Assembly: GCA_011064875.1 (NCBI GenBank)
Contig: JAAKFV010000002.1
Location: 1 to 51,749 of the forward strand
Source of the DNA: Candidatus Anoxychlamydiales bacterium
GTDB lineage: Bacteria; Chlamydiota; Chlamydiia; Chlamydiales; SM23-39
Length of the DNA stretch: 51,749 nucleotides
Reading direction: 5' to 3'
Shown: one piece after another, positions 9,518 to 36,488 of the stretch
How the letters are laid out: each line of letters starts with the position of its first letter
How positions within the stretch are numbered: position 1 is the stretch's first letter
The notes under the pieces: model-generated
What the model saw: the letters and a program-made list of their open reading frames with translations, nothing else
Databases searched by the model: none
Told to the model about the DNA's origin: nothing
Position numbers and translations under genes: made by a program

Positions 9518-10261
9518 CTATAATAAACTTCCCAATAAACATACGCCAGTAATAGCAATCAAAGGCAGGGCTATTGTCATACAATTGGATTTTAAAACAT
9601 TTGAAGAACCTTCTTCTTGTATTGCCTCTTTTTCAGCTCTCATTTCAAGAATGGCTTCGAGTGCCTTTTCCTCTTTTGCTTCTTTATGTTTTCGAATAGC
9701 TTTTTGAAGACTTTTAATAAACTTTTTTAGATCCTTCTCATCTGTCGGAATTTCATCAGGTATATCTTTAACTTTATTGAATTTTGCTTTTCCTAATAAT
9801 CTTTGAGCAATCTCTATATTCGGATCTTCCAGATCCTCTGTAACTTCTTCGGCTTTATTCATTATTTCAGTTTTTTTTGGATTTACATAATCATTTCTTA
9901 AATTTTCAAGATCTAAAATAAATTCATCTAACTTTGTTGGATTACTAATAAATTCATCAAGAGTTTTTACCGGAATTTCATCAGGTAGATATCTAATATT
10001 ACAAGATCTAGCTTGTGCTAATAAACGAGTAGCATAGCGCATACTTTCAGCAAATATTTTCTTTTGTTCAGATCTTTCATGCTCCTTATCTTTGAGATTT
10101 TGTATATCCGCAACAATATCATCTGGTTTTATTTTTACCGGATTAAAACTTCTACTATCTTCTGGTATCTTAACATATCTCCTATACTTAGTTTCAAAAC
10201 CTGTAACTCTTCTCTTAAAAACTGGACCACCTGAAGAGCTAGCATTAACTGTAGAGGCCAT
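9518..10261 (-). CDS. Hypothetical tail-anchored protein with an internal duplicated PDEIP motif
   Basis: 247 aa, charged and helical. The single hydrophobic segment is at the extreme C-terminus (CMTIALPLIAITGVCLLGSLL-stop). It carries two related segments (ATRLLAQARSCNIRYLPDEIPVKTLDEFI and AQRLLGKAKFNKVKDIPDEIPTDEKDLKKFI). I recognise no family. Confidence 0.6.
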   Translation of the reverse strand: MASTVNASSSGGPVFKRRVTGFETKYRRYVKIPEDSRSFNPVKIKPDDIVADIQNLKDKEHERSEQKKIFAESMRYATRLLAQARSCNIRYLPDEIPVKTLDEFISNPTKLDEFILDLENLRNDYVNPKKTEIMNKAEEVTEDLEDPNIEIAQRLLGKAKFNKVKDIPDEIPTDEKDLKKFIKSLQKAIRKHKEAKEEKALEAILEMRAEKEAIQEEGSSNVLKSNCMTIALPLIAITGVCLLGSLL

Positions 10262-20665: not shown

Positions 20666-21979
20666 ATGAAAACTTTAAATACTTTTTATATACGTACCTA
20701 TGGCTGTCAAATGAATGAGCTCGACTCTGAGATCATTTCAACGCAGCTTCAGATGAGCAACTTAAAAAAAGTAGATGATGAAGTATCGGCTGATATCATT
20801 ATTTTAAATACCTGTTCTATAAGAGATCTTTCTGAGAAAAAAGTTCTTGGCAAACTCTTCGAATATAAAAAGGATAAAAAAGATAAGATAATTGGTGTAT
20901 GTGGCTGTATGGCTATGAGCCAAAAAGAAACGCTTTTAAAAAAATTCCCACACCTAGATTTTCTACTAGGTACAAATAATCTTTTAGATATAAATAAAAT
21001 TTTAGATGACATTCTTACAAAAAATCTACAAGAGAAAAAAATAGATTTAAACTATGAAATTGGCTTAGAGAATTTCTTTGCTAAAAGAGAAAATAAAATA
21101 AAAACCTCTATCTCTATTATAAGAGGCTGCAATAATTTTTGTTCATATTGCATAGTACCCCAAACGAGAGGAAGAGAGGTTTCTAGAGACCCTTCTAGTA
21201 TTGTAAAAGAGGCTAAATACCTAGCTAGAGAAGGCATTAAAGAGATTACCCTTCTTGGACAAAACGTCAACTCCTATGGCTTAGACAAGCCTGAAAAAAA
21301 AGTTTTATTTCCTGATCTACTATATATGCTAGATAAAGTAGATGGTATAGAAAGAATTAGATTTATGACTTCTCACCCAAAAGATATAACTAAAGATTTA
21401 ATGTTAGCTATTAGAGATTTAAAAAAAGTCTGTGAGTTCGTTCATTTCCCTATGCAATCTGGCTCTAATAAAATTTTGAAAGCTATGAGAAGAACCTACA
21501 CAAAAGAGCACTATTTAGAAAAAGTAAATCTTTTAAAAAGTATAGTCCCTAATGCCACAATTGGCACAGATATAATAGTTGGTTTTCCAAATGAAACCGA
21601 CGAAGATTTTTTAGAGACATATAAATTATTTGATGAGATTAAATTCGATACAGCTTTTATATTTGCCTATAGCCCTAGGCAAAACACCTTAGCCTCCAGG
21701 TATGAAGATAACATCTCAAATACTCTAAAACAGCAAAGGCTACAAAAACTTTTAAAGCTTTATCATAAGATTTTAGAGACCAAATATACAAAGCTAATCG
21801 GTACTAAAAAGGAGGTTTTAGCAGAAAAACTCAGTAAAGATGGGAAATCCTTAAAAGGAAGAACTAAAACCTTCGAAAAGGTTTTATTTCCAGCAGAGTC
21901 AAAGCTTATAGGATCTCTTCAAACAGTTGATATTGAAAGCTTTAGCCATCAAACACTTAAAGGCTCGATTCCTTCATAA
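20666..21979 (+). CDS. miaB: tRNA-i6A37 methylthiotransferase MiaB
   Basis: 437 aa. N-terminal UPF0004 cysteines (YGCQMN, NTCSIR, GCMA), radical-SAM CNNFCSYC, and a C-terminal TRAM-like region. Confidence 0.9.
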   Translation: MKTLNTFYIRTYGCQMNELDSEIISTQLQMSNLKKVDDEVSADIIILNTCSIRDLSEKKVLGKLFEYKKDKKDKIIGVCGCMAMSQKETLLKKFPHLDFLLGTNNLLDINKILDDILTKNLQEKKIDLNYEIGLENFFAKRENKIKTSISIIRGCNNFCSYCIVPQTRGREVSRDPSSIVKEAKYLAREGIKEITLLGQNVNSYGLDKPEKKVLFPDLLYMLDKVDGIERIRFMTSHPKDITKDLMLAIRDLKKVCEFVHFPMQSGSNKILKAMRRTYTKEHYLEKVNLLKSIVPNATIGTDIIVGFPNETDEDFLETYKLFDEIKFDTAFIFAYSPRQNTLASRYEDNISNTLKQQRLQKLLKLYHKILETKYTKLIGTKKEVLAEKLSKDGKSLKGRTKTFEKVLFPAESKLIGSLQTVDIESFSHQTLKGSIPS

Positions 21980-22151
21980 TACAAGCTTTTGCACTAGAAC
22001 AACTTACATAAAAATCAAGTTTAATTAACTATAAATTATTAATTTAATAAACCATTAAATTAACTTGAATTAATACCTAATAAATGTTATTATTATTTAA
22101 TACTTAATAACATACTTTAACTAATAAAAAAACTTAAAAAAAGCAAATAAT

Positions 22152-22412
22152 ATGACTGCAAGAATAATAAGCCCACCAATAAGAATAATCACAAATCCAT
22201 CGCAAGACTTATTGGATAAAATACAAAAAGCAGGCGTTACACTCCCTCAACTAGAAAGTTATATGAATAGATCTCTTTCTAAACCATTTGGAGGAAGAAA
22301 TAACAATAAATCTGAAAATGCTAAAAAGGCGAAAAAATATAAAAAGCTTTCCGCTGAAACATGGAAAGATATATTCAATGAAAATACATCAACCTATGTA
22401 CATTATATATAA
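22152..22412 (+). CDS. Hypothetical small basic protein (orphan)
   Basis: 86 aa ORF in a long AT-rich intergenic region. I recognise no motif, and coding status is uncertain. Confidence 0.35.
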   Translation: MTARIISPPIRIITNPSQDLLDKIQKAGVTLPQLESYMNRSLSKPFGGRNNNKSENAKKAKKYKKLSAETWKDIFNENTSTYVHYI

Positions 22413-22589
22413 AACATTAAAACCTAGGAAACATTTAAGCTCTTTCAAAAAAAGTTTTTAAAACCTAATCTAACCCCTTCAAAATAATACTCTTAATTAT
22501 CATTAAAATATAATTTAATAATATTGATATTATAGTTAATACTATGCTATAATGTTCATATATTTTAATAAAATTAATAGAATAACACT

Positions 22590-23357
22590 ATGAAAGAAGA
22601 TTTTTTTAATAAGACAATAAGACTTGGCTCTTTTAGGCAAAACATTAAACCTATTCGAATCAATATCAGAAATCTTGGATTTTCACATTTTCAAGATGTA
22701 GAGCTCAAAAACACTGTAACTAGCTCAAAATCCACAAAATCTTATTTTAAAGATCTTTTTTTTGAAACTTTTCCATATATAGATTCAAACTCTCAAAGCC
22801 AAACTCTAAAAAAAGATATTCCTGCAATATTTTTTGATTCATCTATTTTTCCAAATGAGCTTATCTCTTTAAATCAAGAGCCTTTAATAAAAGAGAAAAG
22901 TCCATACATCGATTATCTAAAAAGTTTAAGATTTTTTGGGACTCTAAAACAAAGAAAAGATAAATCAGTTTATTTAAAAATAGATGACTCATTTATAAAT
23001 TTAATCTCATCTAAACTTCCATCTGATATTGAAAAAATGAGTGATTTTAATATTTCTATTATTTCAAAAGAAGAGTATAAAAAGTATGAAGTTTTTCCTA
23101 TATTAGAGCAGGAAGAAAAATTTCAATATAGGATAAAAGATCTATATTCTGTAAATGTTCAAACTGAAAATGGTTTTAAAAAAGTTTGGTTTTTAGAAAT
23201 TGAATCTAAAGATCTAGAAGAATTTAGATATAAATATCATCTTTTTCCAAAAAAAAATGGTCATAATTTTTCAATAAAATTAGGCTCTATAAAATCTTTT
23301 AAACTTAAACTCTCTTTTCCTTTAATGAAAATCAATAGAGCATTTTTTGCTGCTTAA
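22590..23357 (+). CDS. Hypothetical protein upstream of the U-box array
   Basis: 255 aa, same strand as the first U-box gene and 66 nt upstream of it. No signal peptide or TM segment. There is a possible two-lobed fold with N-I-S-I and N-F-S-I tetrads (see findings). Confidence 0.55.
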   Translation: MKEDFFNKTIRLGSFRQNIKPIRINIRNLGFSHFQDVELKNTVTSSKSTKSYFKDLFFETFPYIDSNSQSQTLKKDIPAIFFDSSIFPNELISLNQEPLIKEKSPYIDYLKSLRFFGTLKQRKDKSVYLKIDDSFINLISSKLPSDIEKMSDFNISIISKEEYKKYEVFPILEQEEKFQYRIKDLYSVNVQTENGFKKVWFLEIESKDLEEFRYKYHLFPKKNGHNFSIKLGSIKSFKLKLSFPLMKINRAFFAA

Positions 23358-23423
23358 AAATCTTGCAAAAAATCCTCCTCTTTATTAAGTTTGCTGCAAT
23401 TTAATTTATAAGGAGATATTTAT

Positions 23424-24347
23424 ATGGTTGATCCAGTAAGAGCAGTTGCTGATGCTACTACAGTATTAAAGGAAGAGGATATCTCATGCACAATTGCAGG
23501 AGGAGTGTTCATTGAACCAGTTATAACTAACTGCAATCATAAAATAGAGAAATTAGCTTTAGCGAGGCTTTTAAGAGAAGATAAACATTGTCCTTATTGT
23601 AGAGCTATTGTCACTTCAGCTGTACCAGATGTTGAGCTTGCTAAAAAAATACAAGATCAATTTGTTAAAGTATCCGCTGAGAATAAAAAAATATTCGATG
23701 ATCAAAAACAAGCTCTTTTAGATGATCCTCGATATAATTCTGTTAGAGGAGCTCCTATTATTCCTGCTGTTTCTAGAAGCCGAAGAGTTGAGATGGATGC
23801 AGATGAATCTCTAAGATTTATGGGTATTGATCTATCCGAAGGATTATCAAGTCTTTTTTTAGATTTTTTAGGAATGCCAAGCCCTTTTTCAGGCCCCGGT
23901 GCTGCAGGTCCAAGTCCTTCTACTCTTTTCTCTCAAGTTCAATCTAGCATTAGATTTAATAATTTAACTCAAGCAGAACAAACAGCTGATACAATACCAA
24001 GACCAGATTTTTCAAATTATAGAAATAGAAGCTATGAAAAAATAGCTGGTGCTCATATAGCAAAAGCCAATACACATATCTCACATCTTCAACACGCTAC
24101 AAGAGTTACAAGCAAAATATCAGCAGTAGCTATTAAAGATGGTCTTTTCACACAAATTACACTTAAATATACTCAACATAAAGAATACTCAAAAGCTTTT
24201 CAAACAGCTAATAAAATGCAAAGCTTTGTTTTTAGATTCTTAAACAGAATAGCTATTTGTCTAGGAGCGACCTTCCATGGCTTTATATTTATTTTAAGAG
24301 GACTATTTTGGCCTCTTAGAGCGCTAAGAGAAAGGTTAAGTTCTTAA
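23424..24347 (+). CDS. U-box-like domain protein, paralog A (candidate E3 ubiquitin ligase effector)
   Basis: 307 aa with an AAGGAG RBS. The N-terminus is CTIAGGVFIEPVITNCNHKIEKLALARLL...CPYCRAIVTSAVPDVELAKKI. Then come KKIFDDQK, a Pro/Ser/Gly linker, one or two helical repeat units, and a C-terminal hydrophobic tail ending PLRALRERLSS. Confidence 0.72.
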   Translation: MVDPVRAVADATTVLKEEDISCTIAGGVFIEPVITNCNHKIEKLALARLLREDKHCPYCRAIVTSAVPDVELAKKIQDQFVKVSAENKKIFDDQKQALLDDPRYNSVRGAPIIPAVSRSRRVEMDADESLRFMGIDLSEGLSSLFLDFLGMPSPFSGPGAAGPSPSTLFSQVQSSIRFNNLTQAEQTADTIPRPDFSNYRNRSYEKIAGAHIAKANTHISHLQHATRVTSKISAVAIKDGLFTQITLKYTQHKEYSKAFQTANKMQSFVFRFLNRIAICLGATFHGFIFILRGLFWPLRALRERLSS

Positions 24348-24377
24348 AAATACAATAAATTAATAGAAGGTAAAAAC

Positions 24378-25898
24378 GTGTCATGGGTTTCACTTACAAC
24401 AGATTATCTTAGATTTTTTTTTCAAAGTCCATTGGAAATAGAAGCTATTACCTGTCCTCTCACCTTAAAAATATTGGTTAAGCCTATTAAAACAAATTGT
24501 GGCCATGATTTTGAACAACTTGCTTTAGCAATGCAATTTAGAACCGCTGATCCATCTATCCGAGATAATTGTGGATTGTGTAGAGCAAGAATTACTTCAG
24601 TTGATTTAGATAATGAGCTTATAAAAAAAATACAATATCGATTTGTAAAAACTCACGGAATGACTAACAAAAAGAATAAAAAAATATTTGATGATCAAAA
24701 AAAAGAACTCGATAAAGCAGAAGAGTATGATGATGTTAGAGGAGTGGATGTAATTCCTCAAAGATCAGCAGGGAGAAGAGAAGAAATACTAGAAGAATTT
24801 AGAGGCCTTGCTGACTTTCTTGAAAGCAGTTTTCCACGATCTCCACCGAGAGCGTCATATGAAAATTACGAACGCCGCCCTGCTTTTTCTTCATCTAGAT
24901 CAAATTCTTCTCATGCAAACATCCCAAGGAGATTACGAAACTCTATTTCGTCTATCAGACCAACTAGGATAATTCTAGGCATAAAAAATAATGCATCTTA
25001 TCTAATTACTAAACTTTTTACTAAACTTTTTAACTTAATTATCGCATCTAGTGAATCATTATTGCAAAAAGTAGATCAATGCATAAGAAATGGTTCTTTA
25101 GCACAAGCTGAGATTTATGCATCTCGAATTTCAGATAGTTCATTAAAAAATCAATGTTATCCAAAAATAGCAGCCTCATATCTAGATAAAGCAAGCTTGG
25201 ATTTAGCAAATTTTGACAATCATTTAATATCTTCTATAAGAACTACTAGATTAATTACTAATCCTCATATCAAAAATAATCTTTTTCAGCAAATTGCTCA
25301 AAAATATATAGATAATGATAACTTGCTCCAAGCAAAGTCTATTGTTAGAGATGACATAATAGCTGGTAATAAAGATGAATTATTCGAAAAAATTTGTTCA
25401 AAATTTTTATCAAGAGAATATTCTTTATCAAATACTCAAGAAGTTTTAAGTATAATCCCTTTAATTACCTATGGCACCATTAAAGATAATCTATCTCTAA
25501 ACCTCTTAAATAAATGCATAGCTATTAATGATTTTGAAAATGCTGAAAATGCAATAGAAAAGCTTTGTTTTACATTTCGGAAACAAGCCGAATATTCCAG
25601 TCTTTTTCAAGTATTAATAAATAGTAATAGCGATAGCAATTTACATAGAGCTTTACACATCAATGATAAAATAGAATCTTATTTTTTAAAAAATATAAAT
25701 TATAGAAAAGTTTCTTTTAAATTTGCAGAGATTAGATGTTTTAAAGATGCATATAAAATAGTTTCTAAAATAACTAATCCAGCTACTAGAAGGTTTTCAT
25801 ATTTCCTCTTAACAATAAAAATTCCTTTTTCATTGCTATATTCAATAGTTTCATTTCCATTTAGAAAAATAATTAGTTGGCTCAAAAAAGAAAGATAG
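24378..25898 (+). CDS. U-box-like domain protein, paralog B (candidate E3 ubiquitin ligase effector)
   Basis: 506 aa. A GTG start is needed to include the domain, and GAAGG lies 7 nt upstream. The N-terminus is CPLTLKILVKPIKTNCGHDFEQLALAMQF...CGLCRARITSVDLDNELIKKI. KKIFDDQK, helical repeats and a hydrophobic C-terminus (FPFRKIISWLKKER) follow. Confidence 0.72.
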   Translation: MSWVSLTTDYLRFFFQSPLEIEAITCPLTLKILVKPIKTNCGHDFEQLALAMQFRTADPSIRDNCGLCRARITSVDLDNELIKKIQYRFVKTHGMTNKKNKKIFDDQKKELDKAEEYDDVRGVDVIPQRSAGRREEILEEFRGLADFLESSFPRSPPRASYENYERRPAFSSSRSNSSHANIPRRLRNSISSIRPTRIILGIKNNASYLITKLFTKLFNLIIASSESLLQKVDQCIRNGSLAQAEIYASRISDSSLKNQCYPKIAASYLDKASLDLANFDNHLISSIRTTRLITNPHIKNNLFQQIAQKYIDNDNLLQAKSIVRDDIIAGNKDELFEKICSKFLSREYSLSNTQEVLSIIPLITYGTIKDNLSLNLLNKCIAINDFENAENAIEKLCFTFRKQAEYSSLFQVLINSNSDSNLHRALHINDKIESYFLKNINYRKVSFKFAEIRCFKDAYKIVSKITNPATRRFSYFLLTIKIPFSLLYSIVSFPFRKIISWLKKER

Positions 25899-26016
25899 AT
25901 CTACAAAAAAATCTATCTTAAAAAAGTTTTAAGATCGATATTTTTTAATTTTAAATTCTTGCATTAAAAATTAAACTACTCTATTTTTTACGATCTTAAA
26001 AAAGGAGATTATCAAT

Positions 26017-27471
26017 ATGCCTGATGTAGATATAGTTCCAAAAGATTTTGAGTGTCCAATAACTCTTGATGTAATGGTATCTCCTGTTAGAACGAACTGC
26101 TTAGAAGAAAAACCAACTACTAGCTTTTTTTCTCGTATTTTTGCACCTGCGCCAGATGATAGTTTCAAGGGGCATTATTTTGAAAGAGATGCCTTAGCTG
26201 CTCATTTTCGTCAAAACAATCAAAACTGCCCAACTTGTAATCGAATAATTACAAAAGTTGTTCCTGATAAAAATTTGGCAGAAAGAATAACTAGAGAATT
26301 TACCGCTAAACACAAACTGCATTTTGAAGCTGCGAAAAATGATGTTGAAAAAACCTACGGTGCTATGAAAGATCGGCCGATTATTCCAAACGATTCAGAT
26401 CCTAGTGTAGCTGAGAGAGCAACTCCAGAAGCTCCCGCACCCGGCAGCTTAGCTCCTAGCGCTGAAAGAGCCCCTAGACCCTATAGAGATAGTTTTGCAT
26501 CAGGACTATTTAGCCATAGAGCATTTCATGCTCACCATCCTCTTTTTAGCGCACTTTATCCACGAAGAGAATCTGATAGCACTAAATATAACAAAGTCAA
26601 GCAACATATTAGAAATGACAATTTAGTCTTAGCTAACAATGAAGCCGATAGAATAGTTAGTGCTTATTCTAGAAATATGGCTTATCGAGATATCTCTGAG
26701 AATTATCTTAATAAATATATCTCAAGATATAATGTTAGAAGGTCTTCCGAACATCTTGTATCTGCGAGTAGAGTTGTTTCAAAAATTATTGACCATTCAA
26801 TGAAAAATAATCTTAACTATAAAATTGTGCAAAAAGCATTTCCTAATCATTTAGTCCATGTTGAAGGAGTCGCTCGTTTAATCACTAATATCAGACTAAA
26901 AAACATGGCTTTAGAAACAATTGCTAAAAAAAATATAACTCTATACTTATCTTATAGTATGGAAGCAAGAATTCAAGATGGGATAAGAATTGCGAACACT
27001 TTAGTTACAGATGACTCTACGAAACAAAACATTTTAAATGAGGCTATAAATGCATACATAAGAAAAGACAAACTTAAAAAAGCTATAAATCTCAACAACT
27101 CTATCTCATCGATCAATGCTCAAGATCAAAACAAAAAAGATATCGCTAATCAATATGTTAATAGAAATTTTACCAATGCAAATTTTCAAAAATCTTTAAC
27201 TACAGCTAGTCAAATATCTAGCATGTCGATAAAAGACTCTACTTATAGTTTGATTGTTGGAAAAGCAGCTTCAAATAAAGCTTATTTAAAATCATATAAA
27301 ACGATCTCAAAGATATCTAAATTTTCAAAACGTTTGGGTTTATATATTAAAGTTACTTGCAAAATGTTATTTTTTGGACTTTTTAAAGTTGTTAGCTTTC
27401 CATTTAAATTAACTTACTGGGGATTTTATTATCTCTTAGCTCCATTTAGAGCATTATTTAAAAGACGTTAA
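26017..27471 (+). CDS. U-box domain protein, paralog C (candidate E3 ubiquitin ligase effector)
   Basis: 484 aa with an AAGGAG RBS. This is the best U-box match: FECPITLDVMVSPVRTNC-[23 aa insert]-GHYFERDALAAHFRQNNQNCPTCNRIITKVVPDKNLAERI. An Ala/Pro linker, about 6 helical repeat units and a hydrophobic C-terminus (FPFKLTYWGFYYLLAPFRALFKRR) follow. Confidence 0.82.
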   Translation: MPDVDIVPKDFECPITLDVMVSPVRTNCLEEKPTTSFFSRIFAPAPDDSFKGHYFERDALAAHFRQNNQNCPTCNRIITKVVPDKNLAERITREFTAKHKLHFEAAKNDVEKTYGAMKDRPIIPNDSDPSVAERATPEAPAPGSLAPSAERAPRPYRDSFASGLFSHRAFHAHHPLFSALYPRRESDSTKYNKVKQHIRNDNLVLANNEADRIVSAYSRNMAYRDISENYLNKYISRYNVRRSSEHLVSASRVVSKIIDHSMKNNLNYKIVQKAFPNHLVHVEGVARLITNIRLKNMALETIAKKNITLYLSYSMEARIQDGIRIANTLVTDDSTKQNILNEAINAYIRKDKLKKAINLNNSISSINAQDQNKKDIANQYVNRNFTNANFQKSLTTASQISSMSIKDSTYSLIVGKAASNKAYLKSYKTISKISKFSKRLGLYIKVTCKMLFFGLFKVVSFPFKLTYWGFYYLLAPFRALFKRR

Positions 27472-27489
27472 AAAATTTTGCAAATTGAT

Positions 27490-29514
27490 TTAGAGCATAG
27501 CTGAAAACTCTTCTTCTGTAAGAGTTTTTATTCCTAATTTTTTAGCTTTCTCAAATTTAGAACCAGGCTCAGATCCTACTAAAACATAGTCGGTATTTTT
27601 GCTAACAGAACTAGAGGTTTTACCCCCTCTTTCTTTTATTAGCTTTTTGGCTTCATCTCTTGTGAAATGTTCTAAAGAGCCTGTTAAAACAAAGATTTTA
27701 CTAAAAAATAGATGATCTTTTTTTGTCTCTTTTGGCTTTTGAGGAGAAACTCCTAAAGATAGAAGTTTTTCAATTTCATCTAAATTATTTTGATCTTCAA
27801 AATACTCTACAATAGAATCTGCAGCAATATCTCCAATACCCTCAATATTTATAAGCTCTTCTGTAGTTAATTTTTGAAGCTTTTTTATATCTTTTGAAAA
27901 GTTCGCTAAAAGATCAGCACTCTCAGATCCCACATATTTAATTCCAAGCGCCATTATGAATCTAGAAAATGTGCATTTTTTTGATTTTTTAATGCTATCT
28001 AATAAATTTTTAATAGATTTTTCTTTAAAGCCTTCAAGCTCTGATAACATCTCTTCATTTAAAAGATATATATCAGAGGGTTTTGATACAAAACCCCTTT
28101 CAACTAAAGTCTGCATAACTTTAATACCTAAGTGCTCTATATCCATAGCATTTTTTGCAGCGAAATAAATGAGTCTTCTTAGATTTTGACCTTTACAATT
28201 TAAATTTGTGCAGCGATAAGCTACCTCCCCTTTTACATTTTCAACATCAAATAAGCAAATTGGACATTTTTTTGGCATCTCAAATTTTTTAGCGCCCTTT
28301 TTTCTTTTAGAAAAATCAACGCTTACAACTTTAGGGATAACATCGCCGCCTTTTTCAATTATTACTGTATCTGTGATTCTAATATCTTTTCTTTGGATCT
28401 CATCTAGGTTATGAAGAGTTGCTCTTGAAATTGTCGATCCTGCTACAAATGTAGGTTCTAGCTCCGCTACGGGGGTTAAAATGCCTGTTCGTCCAATTTG
28501 TATTGTAATATCTTTTATAGTTGTTATTGCTTGCTCTGCTGCAAATTTATAAGCTACGGCGTATCTAGGTGATTTTCCTGTAAAGCCAAGGGATTTATGA
28601 GCTTTTATATCATCTACTTTTATGACGATACCATCGATTTCAAAACTAAGTTTCTCTCTTGTCTTTTCTATTTTATTTGCAAAAGATAAGATATCATCTA
28701 AATTTTTACAGAGATTAAAATGTTTTTGAGATGAAATCGGAAGTCCGAATTCTTTTAAGTAGTTGTGCATTTCAAATTGAGAGGAAACAAAATTCTCAGC
28801 ATTTGCAATTGAGTAGCAAATAACATCTAAATGTCTTTTTGCAACTTCTTTTGGATCTAAAAGTTTTAAAGAGCCTGCGGCTGCATTTCTTGGGTTTGCA
28901 AAAACATCTAATCCATCTTCTTCTCTTTTTTCATTTAACTTTTTAAAAATGTTTTTATGTATAAAAACCTCTCCTCTAACTTCGATTAAATCTGGAATGT
29001 TTTTTTCGCTACTATGAAGTTTTAAAGGAAGAGTTTTTATAGTTTTTATATTTAGAGTTACATCATCTCCAGTTTTACCATTTCCCCTTGTTAAAGCTTG
29101 TGTAAGATGACCTTTTTCATATCTAATAGATATTGCCGTTCCATCCATTTTTAACTCTGTGCAGAATTTAACATCCTCTTTTTCTAAAAGCTTATATATC
29201 CTTTTAATAAAATCTTTTAACTCATCTTTTGAATATGTATTAGCAAGAGACATCATCGGAGTTAAATGAGAAAAGTGTTTAAAGCCTTTTGTTAGGGCTT
29301 CTCCTATTCTTAAAGATGGAGAGTTTGGATGTATTAGAGTAGGATTTTTTTTTTCAAAAGCTTGAAGCTCTTTAATTAACAGATCATAATCGTAGTCTGA
29401 AATTATAGGCTTAGCTTCTTTGTAGTAGTGTTTATCGTGCTCGATAAGCTCATTTACAAGGTCTATGTAATCTTTTTGGTCTTTTATTTTTCTATGGGTC
29501 AATTTGAACCTCAA
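27490..29514 (-). CDS. ligA: NAD-dependent DNA ligase LigA
   Basis: 674 aa. Adenylation motif KMDG (ELKMDGTAISI), a Cys4 zinc finger (CPICLF...CTNLNC), and HhH and BRCT regions. Confidence 0.97.
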   Translation of the reverse strand: MRFKLTHRKIKDQKDYIDLVNELIEHDKHYYKEAKPIISDYDYDLLIKELQAFEKKNPTLIHPNSPSLRIGEALTKGFKHFSHLTPMMSLANTYSKDELKDFIKRIYKLLEKEDVKFCTELKMDGTAISIRYEKGHLTQALTRGNGKTGDDVTLNIKTIKTLPLKLHSSEKNIPDLIEVRGEVFIHKNIFKKLNEKREEDGLDVFANPRNAAAGSLKLLDPKEVAKRHLDVICYSIANAENFVSSQFEMHNYLKEFGLPISSQKHFNLCKNLDDILSFANKIEKTREKLSFEIDGIVIKVDDIKAHKSLGFTGKSPRYAVAYKFAAEQAITTIKDITIQIGRTGILTPVAELEPTFVAGSTISRATLHNLDEIQRKDIRITDTVIIEKGGDVIPKVVSVDFSKRKKGAKKFEMPKKCPICLFDVENVKGEVAYRCTNLNCKGQNLRRLIYFAAKNAMDIEHLGIKVMQTLVERGFVSKPSDIYLLNEEMLSELEGFKEKSIKNLLDSIKKSKKCTFSRFIMALGIKYVGSESADLLANFSKDIKKLQKLTTEELINIEGIGDIAADSIVEYFEDQNNLDEIEKLLSLGVSPQKPKETKKDHLFFSKIFVLTGSLEHFTRDEAKKLIKERGGKTSSSVSKNTDYVLVGSEPGSKFEKAKKLGIKTLTEEEFSAML

Positions 29515-35477: not shown

Positions 35478-36488
35478 TTATTTTTCAGAAAATGTTTCAG
35501 ATGTTTTTGCTTTAGATTGCAACTCTTCTAGTAAAGCTATATCTTCAGTATCTGCTATTCTTTTTTCTTCCCTCTTACGACTATTGTCAAACTCTTCATA
35601 TTTATCAAAAGCTAGATTCTCTGCTACTTGTGCTGAAATTTTTCCAGCATGAGTAAGAAGATCTCTTTCATTGAAAGTAAGAAATGTATCAAGTTTTTGC
35701 TCCCATTCTCCCATTGTCATAACTTTATACCGGTTAACTTGATCTTCAGCATAGTCGAGATACATAATAACAATTCGATTAAGTTCATCAATTTCAGGTT
35801 GATTAAGATAATTCTTGGCAATACTTACATCTTGCTTCCTAACTCTACTTCCTTTCCAGCTTTTAAGCCCCATATTTGCAAGTACTGGATTGACTCTCTG
35901 AACAATTAATTCGGCAGCAGTCTGATGAGTTGTCGCCCAAAGCATCTTATTTTGAACTTTTTTAAAAAATAGCTTAGCTTGATCACTTTTAGGATCATAA
36001 TCTATTGCTGTAGCATAAATATCGCGTACTTTCTGATAAAAACGTTTTTCTGAAGAACGAATCTCTTTAATACGTTCAAGTAGTTCATCAAAATAGTCTA
36101 ATGTTGATGGATTTTTTAATCTTTCATCATCTAAAACAAATCCTTTAACAAGATATTCTCGAAGAGTCGTAGTAGCCCACTGACGAAATTGAGTTCCTCG
36201 ATTAGATTTCACTCGATAGCCAATCGCAAGAATCATTCTTAAATTATAAACTTTAGTTGCATAGTTCTTCCCATCACTGGCAGTTGTCAAGTATTCCTTG
36301 ACAACTGATTCATCTAATTCTTCTTCTGCAAAAATATTTTTAATATGAAGACTAATATTTTGTTTGGTTATCTGAAAAAGTTTCGCTATTTCAAGTTGAG
36401 TAAGCCAAACTGTACCACTTTCAGCTTTTAACTTAATTACTGCACTTCCATCTTCTACTGTATAAAGAATAATTTTTCCATTGCTCAT
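35478..36488 (-). CDS. rhuM: RhuM-family protein (virulence protein RhuM family)
   Basis: 336 aa. Strong resemblance to the RhuM consensus: IILYTVEDGSAVIKL....TVWLTQLEIAKLFQITKQNISLHIKNIF.EEELDE..VVKEYLTTASDGKNY.TK.YNL..ILAIGYRVKS.RGTQFRQWAT..LREYLVKGF.LDDERLK. Confidence 0.9.
   Translation of the reverse strand: MSNGKIILYTVEDGSAVIKLKAESGTVWLTQLEIAKLFQITKQNISLHIKNIFAEEELDESVVKEYLTTASDGKNYATKVYNLRMILAIGYRVKSNRGTQFRQWATTTLREYLVKGFVLDDERLKNPSTLDYFDELLERIKEIRSSEKRFYQKVRDIYATAIDYDPKSDQAKLFFKKVQNKMLWATTHQTAAELIVQRVNPVLANMGLKSWKGSRVRKQDVSIAKNYLNQPEIDELNRIVIMYLDYAEDQVNRYKVMTMGEWEQKLDTFLTFNERDLLTHAGKISAQVAENLAFDKYEEFDNSRKREEKRIADTEDIALLEELQSKAKTSETFSEK

Follow-up and report, generated by a model that had tools for sequence, protein, structure and literature searches.

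What are three genes with eukaryote-like ubiquitin ligase (E3) domains doing in an uncultured chlamydia from marine sediment? The genes, here called A, B and C, lie in tandem in the window, by which we mean the whole stretch of 51,749 nucleotides (nt) of Candidatus Anoxychlamydiales DNA that was analysed (contig JAAKFV010000002.1). An earlier note on this DNA had described three open reading frames (ORFs) on one strand, separated by 30 nt (A to B) and 118 nt (B to C), and had read them as paralogous U-box proteins; the ORFs and their spacing match exactly, and BLASTP E-values of 4e-24 (A/B), 8e-29 (B/C) and 6e-18 (A/C), at pairwise identities of 25-38%, place the paralogy far above chance. Our answer, which we hold with somewhat more belief than doubt, is that A, B and C are translocated, membrane-anchored mimics of eukaryote-type E3 ligases, anciently duplicated within a lineage-specific chlamydial family. 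Below, the codes L002 to L017 denote the related loci with which the window was compared, L002 being that of K940_chlam_5.

Fold and zinc ligands of the N-terminal domain

Scans of the single window proteins against NCBIfam and Pfam returned nothing beyond sub-threshold matches, all to models of the RING clan: zf-Nse at about 1e-4, U-box at 1e-3 to 7e-3 and zf-C3HC4_2 at 6e-4. With the U-box model (PF04564, cut-off 21.4 bits) A scored 16.9 bits and C 19.5 bits and B had no match, and with zf-Nse (PF11789, cut-off 27) the three proteins reached 19-22 bits. The Pfam comparison of the N-termini that the earlier note had proposed thus fails for the window proteins themselves but succeeds for their syntenic orthologs: the L008 protein exceeds the curated cut-offs of zf-Nse (46.9 bits), zf-RING_2, zf-RING_UBOX and zf-C3HC4, and the ortholog R1 of L012 exceeds that of U-box (24.5 bits). 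Over the wider family, for which counts were taken on 25 cluster representatives scanned individually, zf-Nse was matched by 23 (best 1.4e-12) and, at E ≤ 0.01, U-box by 20 (best 5.3e-9); scores with the U-box model are no higher than those with the RING-HC and zf-Nse models. A profile built from seven family N-termini and searched against PDB sequences had its best matches among RING domains, with RNF125 at 5.7e-11, TRIM21 at 5e-8 and BRCA1 at 2e-7; the U-box of GmPUB13 (1e-6), the SP-RING of human NSE2 (1e-5) and the U-box of PUB12 (2.6e-4) came after them. By profile the nearest type is therefore RING-HC and not, as had been claimed, the U-box, whose matches lie between 1e-6 and 3e-4.

Structure prediction points to the same fold. 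An AlphaFold2 model of residues 1-126 of C has a mean predicted local distance difference test score (pLDDT) of 78, and Foldseek superposed its domain with a probability of 1.00 on the U-boxes of OsCIE1 and GmPUB13, with template modelling scores (TM) of 0.82-0.85 and a root-mean-square deviation (rmsd) of 1.5 Å. The second U-box of LubX (TM 0.85, rmsd 1.4 Å), TRIM21 (TM 0.80) and E4B were likewise among the top matches, as were RNF125 and RING1B at an rmsd of about 1.1-1.2 Å, with TM 0.3-0.6 on their longer chains. Several of the E3 domains that superpose on the C model at TM 0.80-0.85 and rmsd 1.1-1.6 Å have been solved in complex with a ubiquitin-conjugating enzyme (E2). In the full-length AlphaFold model of B, pLDDT is about 80-91 over residues 21-130. 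The domain assignment owes its significance to three independent lines, family profile, orthologs and structure prediction, and not to the scores of single window proteins; taken together, profiles and predicted structures show a RING/U-box fold at the N-termini of A, B and C. The RING/U-box-like segments of the earlier note are in this sense real, and the E2-recruiting character of their fold is backed by both the profile search and Foldseek.

Which sub-type of the fold is it? Ligand positions were read from an alignment of the 25 representative N-termini with RNF125 and TRIM21. Positions C3, H4, C7 and C8 are kept in the family, and usually C1 as well; C2, C5 and C6 are not Cys or His in any of the 25, so that zinc site 1 is gone, and a U-box-like G-H-x-[FY]-E motif has replaced it. 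No member has the eight-ligand, two-zinc C3HC4 arrangement of RING-HC domains. The pattern of zinc site 2, C3-x-H4...C7-x2-C8, fits 24 of the 25 members, and at the level of sequence this corresponds to the single-site SP-RING pattern, C-x-H plus C-x2-C with the first site lost. Classical U-boxes lack both zinc sites and have networks of hydrogen bonds or salt bridges instead. Judged by its ligands, then, the domain would be a single-zinc half-RING with the SP-RING layout and not a classical zinc-free U-box, and with the ligands of site 2 almost invariant and only C2, C5 and C6 lost, "U-box" cannot be kept as the name of its sub-type. Paralog C had been called near-canonical, which holds only if the 23 residues inserted between C3 and H4 are ignored; an insertion after C3, variable in length, is the mark of the C-type subfamily.

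Canonical RINGs contact the ubiquitin-charged E2 through the residues after C1, C7 and C8, the last of these being known as the linchpin. An Ile or Leu after C1 is conserved in the family, Pro follows C7 in A and C (B has Gly), and Arg or Lys follows C8 in 18 of the 25 members, with Arg in A and B and Asn in C.

Could the SP-RING layout mean that these proteins imitate E3s for the small ubiquitin-like modifier (SUMO), or for another ubiquitin-like modifier, and recruit Ubc9-like E2s? We consider this unlikely. The idea draws on the retention of zinc site 2 only, on zf-Nse being the Pfam model matched by most members, and on the significant match to NSE2 in the profile search. In that same search, however, ubiquitin RINGs outscored NSE2 by about six orders of magnitude, and in Foldseek NSE2 was the 24th match, with TM 0.60 against 0.80-0.85 for U-boxes and RINGs. 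The frequent linchpin Arg/Lys also speaks for ubiquitin, and the Pfam matches of the window proteins included no SAP, PINIT, SUMO-interacting motif or Smc5-binding module. Moreover, a similar Simkania protein that was found with SP-RING profiles has been judged a degenerate conventional RING by Hofmann and colleagues (PMC12591485).

Helices, repeats and tail downstream of the domain

In the model of B the domain is followed by two helices, which include the sequence NKKIFDDQK, and then by an R-G-x-P-I-I-P segment; this part is predicted with good confidence (pLDDT about 75-88 in the helices). The motif KKIFDDQK had been described as common to all three proteins, and it is indeed exact in A and B, always as NKKIFDDQK, but C has the diverged sequence HKLHFEAAK at this place. 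The 33-nt patch for NKKIFDDQK is 94% identical between A (23680-23712) and B (24673-24705), with about 72% identity in the flanking DNA; either very strong constraint on the post-RING helix or a micro gene-conversion tract could lie behind it.

The remaining elements recognized by the earlier note, a Pro/Ser/Ala-rich linker, helical repeats, a long C-terminal helix and a hydrophobic C-terminus, could all be recovered. In the AlphaFold model of B the linker is predicted to be disordered, the repeats form an all-alpha solenoid and residues 468-505 form one long helix. A hidden Markov model (HMM) of the repeat unit detects a single unit of about 85 amino acids (aa) in A, as in the single-copy orthologs, while B and C have two or three such units in degenerate form, and this difference in unit number accounts for the difference in length between A and the other two. 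Foldseek with full-length B gave only weak matches of the tetratricopeptide repeat (TPR) type, namely LGN, LapB and Ton1535 (E about 1e-3, TM 0.2-0.3), and as these solenoid matches dominated the output, it gave no information on the N-terminal domain. Searched exhaustively with a profile of the post-RING region, the database yielded 105 clusters, and all nine of the non-RING matches that were scanned pass Pfam TPR cut-offs; A, B and C themselves have no match to the Pfam TPR models. We call the solenoid TPR-like on the strength of its predicted helices, the weak Foldseek matches and this retrieval of TPR proteins. A C-type member of 556 aa at L017 (6445-8115) has an obvious recent internal tandem duplication, in which '...IAE[KQ]YLIIYSRTKDET[NK]IQNAI[RK]IANT[IL]I...' occurs twice, so expansion of the repeat units seems still to be going on in the family.

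Each of A, B and C has a single hydropathy peak, and it lies at the extreme C-terminus (KD19 1.4-1.8). Over the family, 21 of 25 members have their top hydrophobic peak, of moderate hydrophobicity, in the last 45 aa with a basic end after it, and 15 of the 25 carry a P-[FLIVM]-[RK] motif at the tail. No Sec-type signal is evident on direct reading of the N-termini. What defines tail-anchored proteins is a transmembrane segment within the last 65-70 residues and the lack of an N-terminal signal peptide, and translocated transmembrane effectors typically carry moderately hydrophobic segments (PMC12981334). A bilobed domain of the Inc type, in which two transmembrane segments joined by a short loop span about 40-60 residues and which is usually N-proximal, was ruled out, since the only peak is at the extreme C-terminus and covers about 20-33 residues. 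In the C-type tails, where two short stretches amount to about 38 aa in total, a hairpin may form. The positions of these elements, with the putative zinc ligands, and those of the neighbouring genes are collected in Table 1.

Table 1. Elements of the A-B-C array, its flanks and ubiquitin-related genes at related loci (window positions unless a locus code is given; ligands and linchpins are assigned from the alignment)
Feature	Position	Strand	Description
miaB	20666-21979		upstream flank of the array
86-aa ORF	22152-22412	+	Lys-rich; in the 610-nt spacer between miaB and ORF U; the ENA record lists it as a gene
Promoter-like site	22524-22553	+	TTGATA-18-TATAAT, 11/12 with extended TG; just upstream of ORF U; best sigma-70-like match of the region
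ORF U	22590-23357	+	255 aa, pI 9.5, conserved C-terminal '...FFAA'; adjoins the array upstream
Paralog A	23424-24347	+	307 aa, ATG start; half-RING domain, one TPR-like helical unit, C-terminal hydrophobic tail
A, RING/U-box-fold domain	23475-23663	+	residues 18-80; putative ligands C22 (C1 remnant), C37-x-H39, C56-x2-C59; R60 at linchpin position
A, hydrophobic tail	24210-24344	+	KD19 maximum 1.81 at residues 276-294, then W-P-L-R-A-L juxtamembrane motif and basic end
Paralog B	24378-25898	+	506 aa, GTG start; half-RING, disordered linker, about three TPR-like units, C-terminal hydrophobic helix
B, RING/U-box-fold domain	24441-24653	+	residues 22-92; putative ligands C26, C41-x-H43, C65-x2-C68; R69 at linchpin position
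B, linker	24765-25043	+	residues 130-222; Ser/Pro/Arg-rich; pLDDT mostly below 50 (130-139, 141-146, 148-222)
B, TPR-like solenoid	25044-25778	+	residues 223-467; all-alpha, about three degenerate units of about 85 aa
B, long helix and hydrophobic tail	25779-25895	+	KD19 maximum 1.58 at residues 473-491, then F-P-F-R and basic end
Paralog C	26017-27471	+	484 aa, ATG start; half-RING with insertion, linker, about three TPR-like units, C-terminal hydrophobic tail
C, RING/U-box-fold domain	26041-26301	+	residues 9-95; putative ligands C13, C28, H53, C71-x2-C74
C, insertion	26101-26169	+	residues 29-51; 23 aa between ligand C3 and G-H4; pLDDT about 55 over residues 31-50
C, hydrophobic tail	27328-27468	+	residues 438-484; two short hydrophobic stretches split by S-F-P-F-K, then A-P-F-R-A-L-F-K-R-R
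ligA	27490-29514	-	downstream flank of the array
F-box protein	L014, 7379-8932		517 aa; between miaB and U, in the slot
F-box and leucine-rich repeat protein	L017, 16710-17948		412 aa; about 7 kb from the slot
USP/UCH-like putative deubiquitinase	L009, 6654-7652		332 aa; between rplM and miaB; 31 bits, cut-off 23.9

Genomic slot, evolutionary rate and proposed function

Is this a family with a history of its own or an accident of one genome? Word-indexed homolog searches found 6, 4 and 3 proteins, the nearest of them annotated as "Candidatus Anoxychlamydiales bacterium", and the exhaustive post-RING search of representatives added about 18 further clusters (at 50% identity) with the whole architecture. 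A contig scan with a pattern derived from KKIFDDQK found only K940_chlam_5 and a spurious match of 31 residues in Dyadobacter. No Simkania protein was returned by the family protein searches, the contig scan having covered the KKIFDDQK-derived pattern only. As far as such sequence searches reach, the family is confined to genomes of the Anoxychlamydiales type. All members with both flanks on their contig occupy one slot, rpsI-rplM-miaB-(U)-[RING-like gene(s)]-ligA, with glgB as the next gene on contigs that show it. The slot holds one copy in L008, L009, L011 and L014, two in L012, three in the window and in L002, and four in L017, where all four are matched by the domain HMM (2e-21 to 5e-38). 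The earlier note was right about the slot between miaB and ligA, except that two further ORFs, U and one of 86 aa, separate miaB from A.

In a bootstrapped neighbour-joining tree the C-type and B-type proteins form clades with 100% support and the A-type proteins one with 99%; A and B are sisters (96%), and the proteins of the single-copy genomes fall outside all three clades. With one to four copies in the same slot of eight genomes, this agrees with the proposal of one family expanded in situ, and from the tree we infer that a single gene gave rise first to C and an A/B ancestor and then to A and B, all three lineages having been retained. Recent duplication or gene conversion was ruled out as the origin of the paralogs by their low mutual identity and by the orthologous clade that each has for itself. 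The GTG start of B is supported by an N-terminal extension, 'YLRxFFQ', which is kept in the B orthologs. The G+C content of the window is about 29% and composition at the array is unremarkable; a mobile element or genomic island was ruled out by this ordinary G+C content together with the synteny of the slot in eight genomes.

Evolutionary rates were estimated by the Nei-Gojobori method, as the ratio of nonsynonymous to synonymous substitutions (dN/dS), between the window and L002, for which dS was unsaturated and similar for all genes compared (about 0.43-0.51). Protein identity is 61% for A, 55% for B and 60% for C, against 87-94% for the flanking genes, and dN/dS is 0.51, 0.55 and 0.48, respectively, against 0.09-0.15 for miaB, ligA, glgB, rplM and U. 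Because dN/dS is about 0.5, with flanks at about 0.1, A, B and C are functional genes under a constraint four- to five-fold weaker than that on their neighbours, and possibly they have experienced episodic positive selection. Pseudogenes or chance ORFs were ruled out by dN/dS below 1 and by the conserved orthologs. The parts of the proteins evolve differently: conservation within A is highest in the RING region (83% identity to the L002 ortholog, dN/dS 0.28, with 0.70 for the helical unit), the RING region of B evolves fast (dN/dS 0.74), and in C it is the tail that is most conserved (91% identity, dN/dS 0.24).

How might such proteins work? The first step would be export from the bacterium, most likely by a type III secretion system; marine-sediment chlamydiae encode a non-flagellar system of this kind (10.1101/577767). 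The C-terminal tail, with its P-Φ-R juxtamembrane motif, would then insert post-translationally, in the manner of a tail anchor, into a membrane of the host or the vacuole, with the remainder of the protein in the host cytosol. There the half-RING would dock a charged host E2, most likely a ubiquitin E2 of the UbcH5/UBE2E type, by means of the residues after C1 (Ile/Leu), C7 (Pro) and C8 (the Arg/Lys linchpin), and the TPR-like solenoid would select the substrates. As the number of solenoid units (one to three) and their sequence differ between the paralogs, the three would ubiquitinate different membrane-located targets.

Several observations weigh against this mechanism. Each window protein lies below the curated cut-off of every Pfam model of the RING clan, and of all single Pfam models the SUMO-type zf-Nse fits best. 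With KD19 values of 1.4-1.6 the tails of B and C are only marginally hydrophobic, and they might be amphipathic rather than membrane-spanning. The export of A, B and C is purely something that we infer, and in the C-type proteins the domain is preceded by only about 10 residues, a short stretch to hold both a classical N-terminal type III secretion signal and a chaperone-binding region. The E2-contacting Pro after C7 is missing from most B-type proteins and the linchpin Arg from many C-type ones, so some paralogs may be weak or inactive ligases.

Perhaps, then, the proteins are translocated but catalytically inert, and serve as an E2 or E3 decoy, as an inhibitor or as a dimerization or scaffold domain, with the TPR-like region and the anchor sequestering host factors. 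The missing Pro and linchpin residues would fit such a role, as would the loss of zinc site 1 in all members, the fast evolution of the RING region of B and the two conserved post-RING helices, which could mediate dimerization. Yet U-boxes and SP-RINGs are active without zinc site 1, the Ile/Leu after C1 is conserved and the RING of A is its most constrained part. Comparable degenerate bacterial domains, those of NleG, LubX and SneRING, are active ligases (PMC2891834; PMC12591485), and we find an inert effector improbable.

A more general objection concerns the host. The authors of the metagenome-assembled genome (MAG) studies suspect that Anoxychlamydiales may have no association with eukaryotes as hosts (PMC7449678; 10.1101/577767), and a host-free lifestyle would fit proteins that are never exported but are tail-anchored in the chlamydial inner membrane, where the RING-like domain mediates protein interactions or belongs to a prokaryotic ubiquitin-like system. 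Prokaryotic RING families do exist, and two members of the present family have weak matches to Prok-RING_4; the hydrophobic C-terminal segment could anchor a protein in a bacterial membrane just as well, and the genes stand among housekeeping genes, possibly in an operon with the conserved ORF U. Against such a role, genes for E1-, E2- or ubiquitin-like proteins are absent from the locus in eight of eight genomes. Three sister genomes instead carry genes related to the eukaryotic ubiquitin system: an F-box gene lies in the slot itself in L014, an F-box/leucine-rich repeat (LRR) gene near it in L017 and a USP-like gene beside it in L009. Eukaryotic F-box proteins bind Skp1. Elevated dN/dS together with variable copy number is typical of proteins at a host interface, and the nearest matches in sequence and structure are eukaryotic E3s and translocated effectors such as LubX. 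We therefore think it rather unlikely that the proteins stay in the bacterium, and a role as host effectors, strengthened by these three genes and by the fast evolution, is plausible.

In seven of the eight syntenic loci ORF U is the next gene upstream of the RING-like gene or genes. It is 91% identical to its L002 ortholog (dN/dS 0.13), has weak, sub-threshold similarity to the Pfam model 2H-SAK (2H-phosphoesterase) in four of five orthologs (best E 1.8e-4) and had no match among PDB sequences; it could be a co-expressed partner, a chaperone or a co-effector. A promoter-like site precedes U, and no terminator-like hairpin was found across 21900-27600, so U-A-B-C may form one co-transcribed operon. 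This is suggestive only, as the total of promoter-like sites in the region is not above the expectation from shuffled sequence. The 86-aa ORF has no counterpart in L002, where the spacer between miaB and U is only about 100 nt, and it is possibly spurious or a small lineage-specific gene.

Some other genes of the window also deserve a brief description. An acidic ORF of 519 aa (46497-48056, + strand) has at its C-terminus two or three tandem stretches that by eye resemble ubiquitin-interacting motifs (UIMs), EEQALECALRLS, DELVAQAIQEEEEE and DDEEALVQMALKASLQE; a Pfam scan of this ORF gave no match, UIM included, and it may be a second protein of this genome related to the ubiquitin system. Two adjacent paralogous ORFs of 221 aa (48167-48832) and 371 aa (49198-50313), both on the + strand and with no Pfam match, share an N-terminal '...WPIQ-K-NL-RTSIPIIT-VAS-M...' with an N-proximal hydrophobic stretch, reminiscent of Inc-type proteins. 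A gene for a RhuM-family 'virulence protein' (35478-36488, - strand; PF13310, 4e-109) lies with an ORF of 49 aa between marC and hflX; since marC and hflX are adjacent in L008 and L014, the segment of about 1.7 kb has the look of a lineage-specific insertion. Finally, an ORF of 247 aa (9518-10261, - strand) with no Pfam match is rich in Ser and Gly at its N-terminus, and its one hydrophobic segment, residues 225-247 at the very C-terminal end, resembles a tail anchor.

Hosts, and comparison with known systems

The main interest of the locus is ecological, as it bears on the disputed host association of the Anoxychlamydiales. A conserved and fast-evolving E3-like locus argues that these bacteria interact with ubiquitin-bearing cells, and the F-box and USP-like genes of the three sister genomes strengthen the case. 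Which cells could these be? Asgard archaea have been reported from the same anoxic sediment layers as the Anoxychlamydiales MAGs (PMC7449678), and one could imagine that the family is aimed at their eukaryote-like ubiquitin machinery rather than at that of a conventional eukaryote. We regard this as very improbable; if true, it would explain the finding of Anoxychlamydiales in active replication where there was almost no eukaryotic DNA, and it would be the first evidence of parasitism of an archaeon by a chlamydia. A weaker version is more likely, namely that the locus is genomic evidence for the exploitation of ubiquitin-bearing hosts, which are probably rare anaerobic protists. Clues to the identity of that host could be had from the E2s that the recombinant domains prefer.

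The closest published parallels come from Simkania negevensis. The neighbouring paralogs SNE_A08700 and SNE_A08690 are predicted, uncharacterised proteins whose best structural match is RNF125; the former has a big insertion after the third zinc ligand and the latter has lost three ligands of zinc site 1, and SNE_A19470, found with SP-RING profiles, was likewise judged a degenerate RING without zinc site 1 and is uncharacterised (PMC12591485). Simkaniales and Anoxychlamydiales both belong to the chlamydial supergroup G1 (PMC9816063). Compared by description only, the window family resembles the pair SNE_A08700/SNE_A08690 in having RNF125 as best PDB match of its profile, in the insertion after C3 of paralog C, in the loss of C2, C5 and C6 and in its tandem genes. 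It differs in that SNE_A08700 keeps all eight ligands, which no member of the window family does, and the main text and S1 figure legend of the Simkania study (PMC12591485) describe neither a TPR-like region nor a C-terminal anchor for any of the three proteins. The claim that the full-length architecture is undescribed can therefore be upheld for the combination, which matches no Pfam family, but not for the domain, since similar RING-like domains were predicted in Simkania in 2025 (PMC12591485). We found no published description or Pfam model for a half-RING joined to TPR-like units and a C-terminal anchor with P-Φ-R, nor a published description of a copy-number series fixed at one locus.

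SneRING (SNE_A12920), also of Simkania, offers a precedent for an active chlamydial E3 with an N-terminal RING: its RING spans residues 14-72, UbcH5b and UBE2T support its activity, and the protein was found in the fraction of endoplasmic reticulum and vacuole membranes of infected cells (PMC12591485). It differs from the window family in its two predicted zinc ions, in a C-terminal alpha/beta domain in place of the TPR-like repeats and in the lack of any described C-terminal hydrophobic tail, and it belongs to a separate sequence family. The Neochlamydia family NEX1b, with 138 dispersed members in amoeba symbionts, has been read as interfering with host ubiquitination, and the same study detected no other RING/U-box proteins in the chlamydial genomes available at that time (PMC4209131). 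It too is a chlamydial expansion in which an N-terminal RING/U-box precedes protein-interaction repeats, but these are LRRs and not TPR-like units, its members are dispersed rather than fixed at one locus in one to four copies, and no C-terminal anchor has been described for it.

More distant bacterial parallels are the translocated E3 effectors LubX/LegU2 and GobX of Legionella, NleG of E. coli and AvrPtoB of Pseudomonas, in which a eukaryote-type RING/U-box fold is used to recruit host E2s. The targeting of GobX to the Golgi is brought about by a lipid anchor. These proteins are zinc-free U-boxes or structurally divergent, have other partner domains and other secretion signals (C-terminal signals for type IV secretion in LubX and GobX), and beyond the shared fold no sequence relationship to the window family is detectable. 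GobX is Golgi-targeted (PMC12591485), and NleG is like the window family in having many paralogs (PMC2891834).

Among eukaryotic proteins, the SP-RING ligases (Siz/PIAS and Nse2/Mms21) share the single-zinc ligand topology, although the window family has none of their SAP, PINIT, SIM or Smc5-binding modules. CHIP consists of TPRs and a U-box, the same two domain types in reversed order, and TRIM13 and TRIM59 combine an N-terminal RING with a C-terminal transmembrane anchor, the same logic of domain and tether, with a B-box and coiled-coil that the window family lacks. Beyond the RING fold these likenesses are best taken as analogies of design, with no demonstrated homology. To our knowledge, few bacterial RING/U-box mimics are known so far, and SneRING (2025) is the only chlamydial one that has been characterised. 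Translocated mimicry of RING/U-box E3s is nevertheless a known bacterial strategy, and the A/B/C family would add to this kind a well-delimited and evolutionarily tractable example, with one slot, one to four copies and three old paralog lineages that have each been retained separately.

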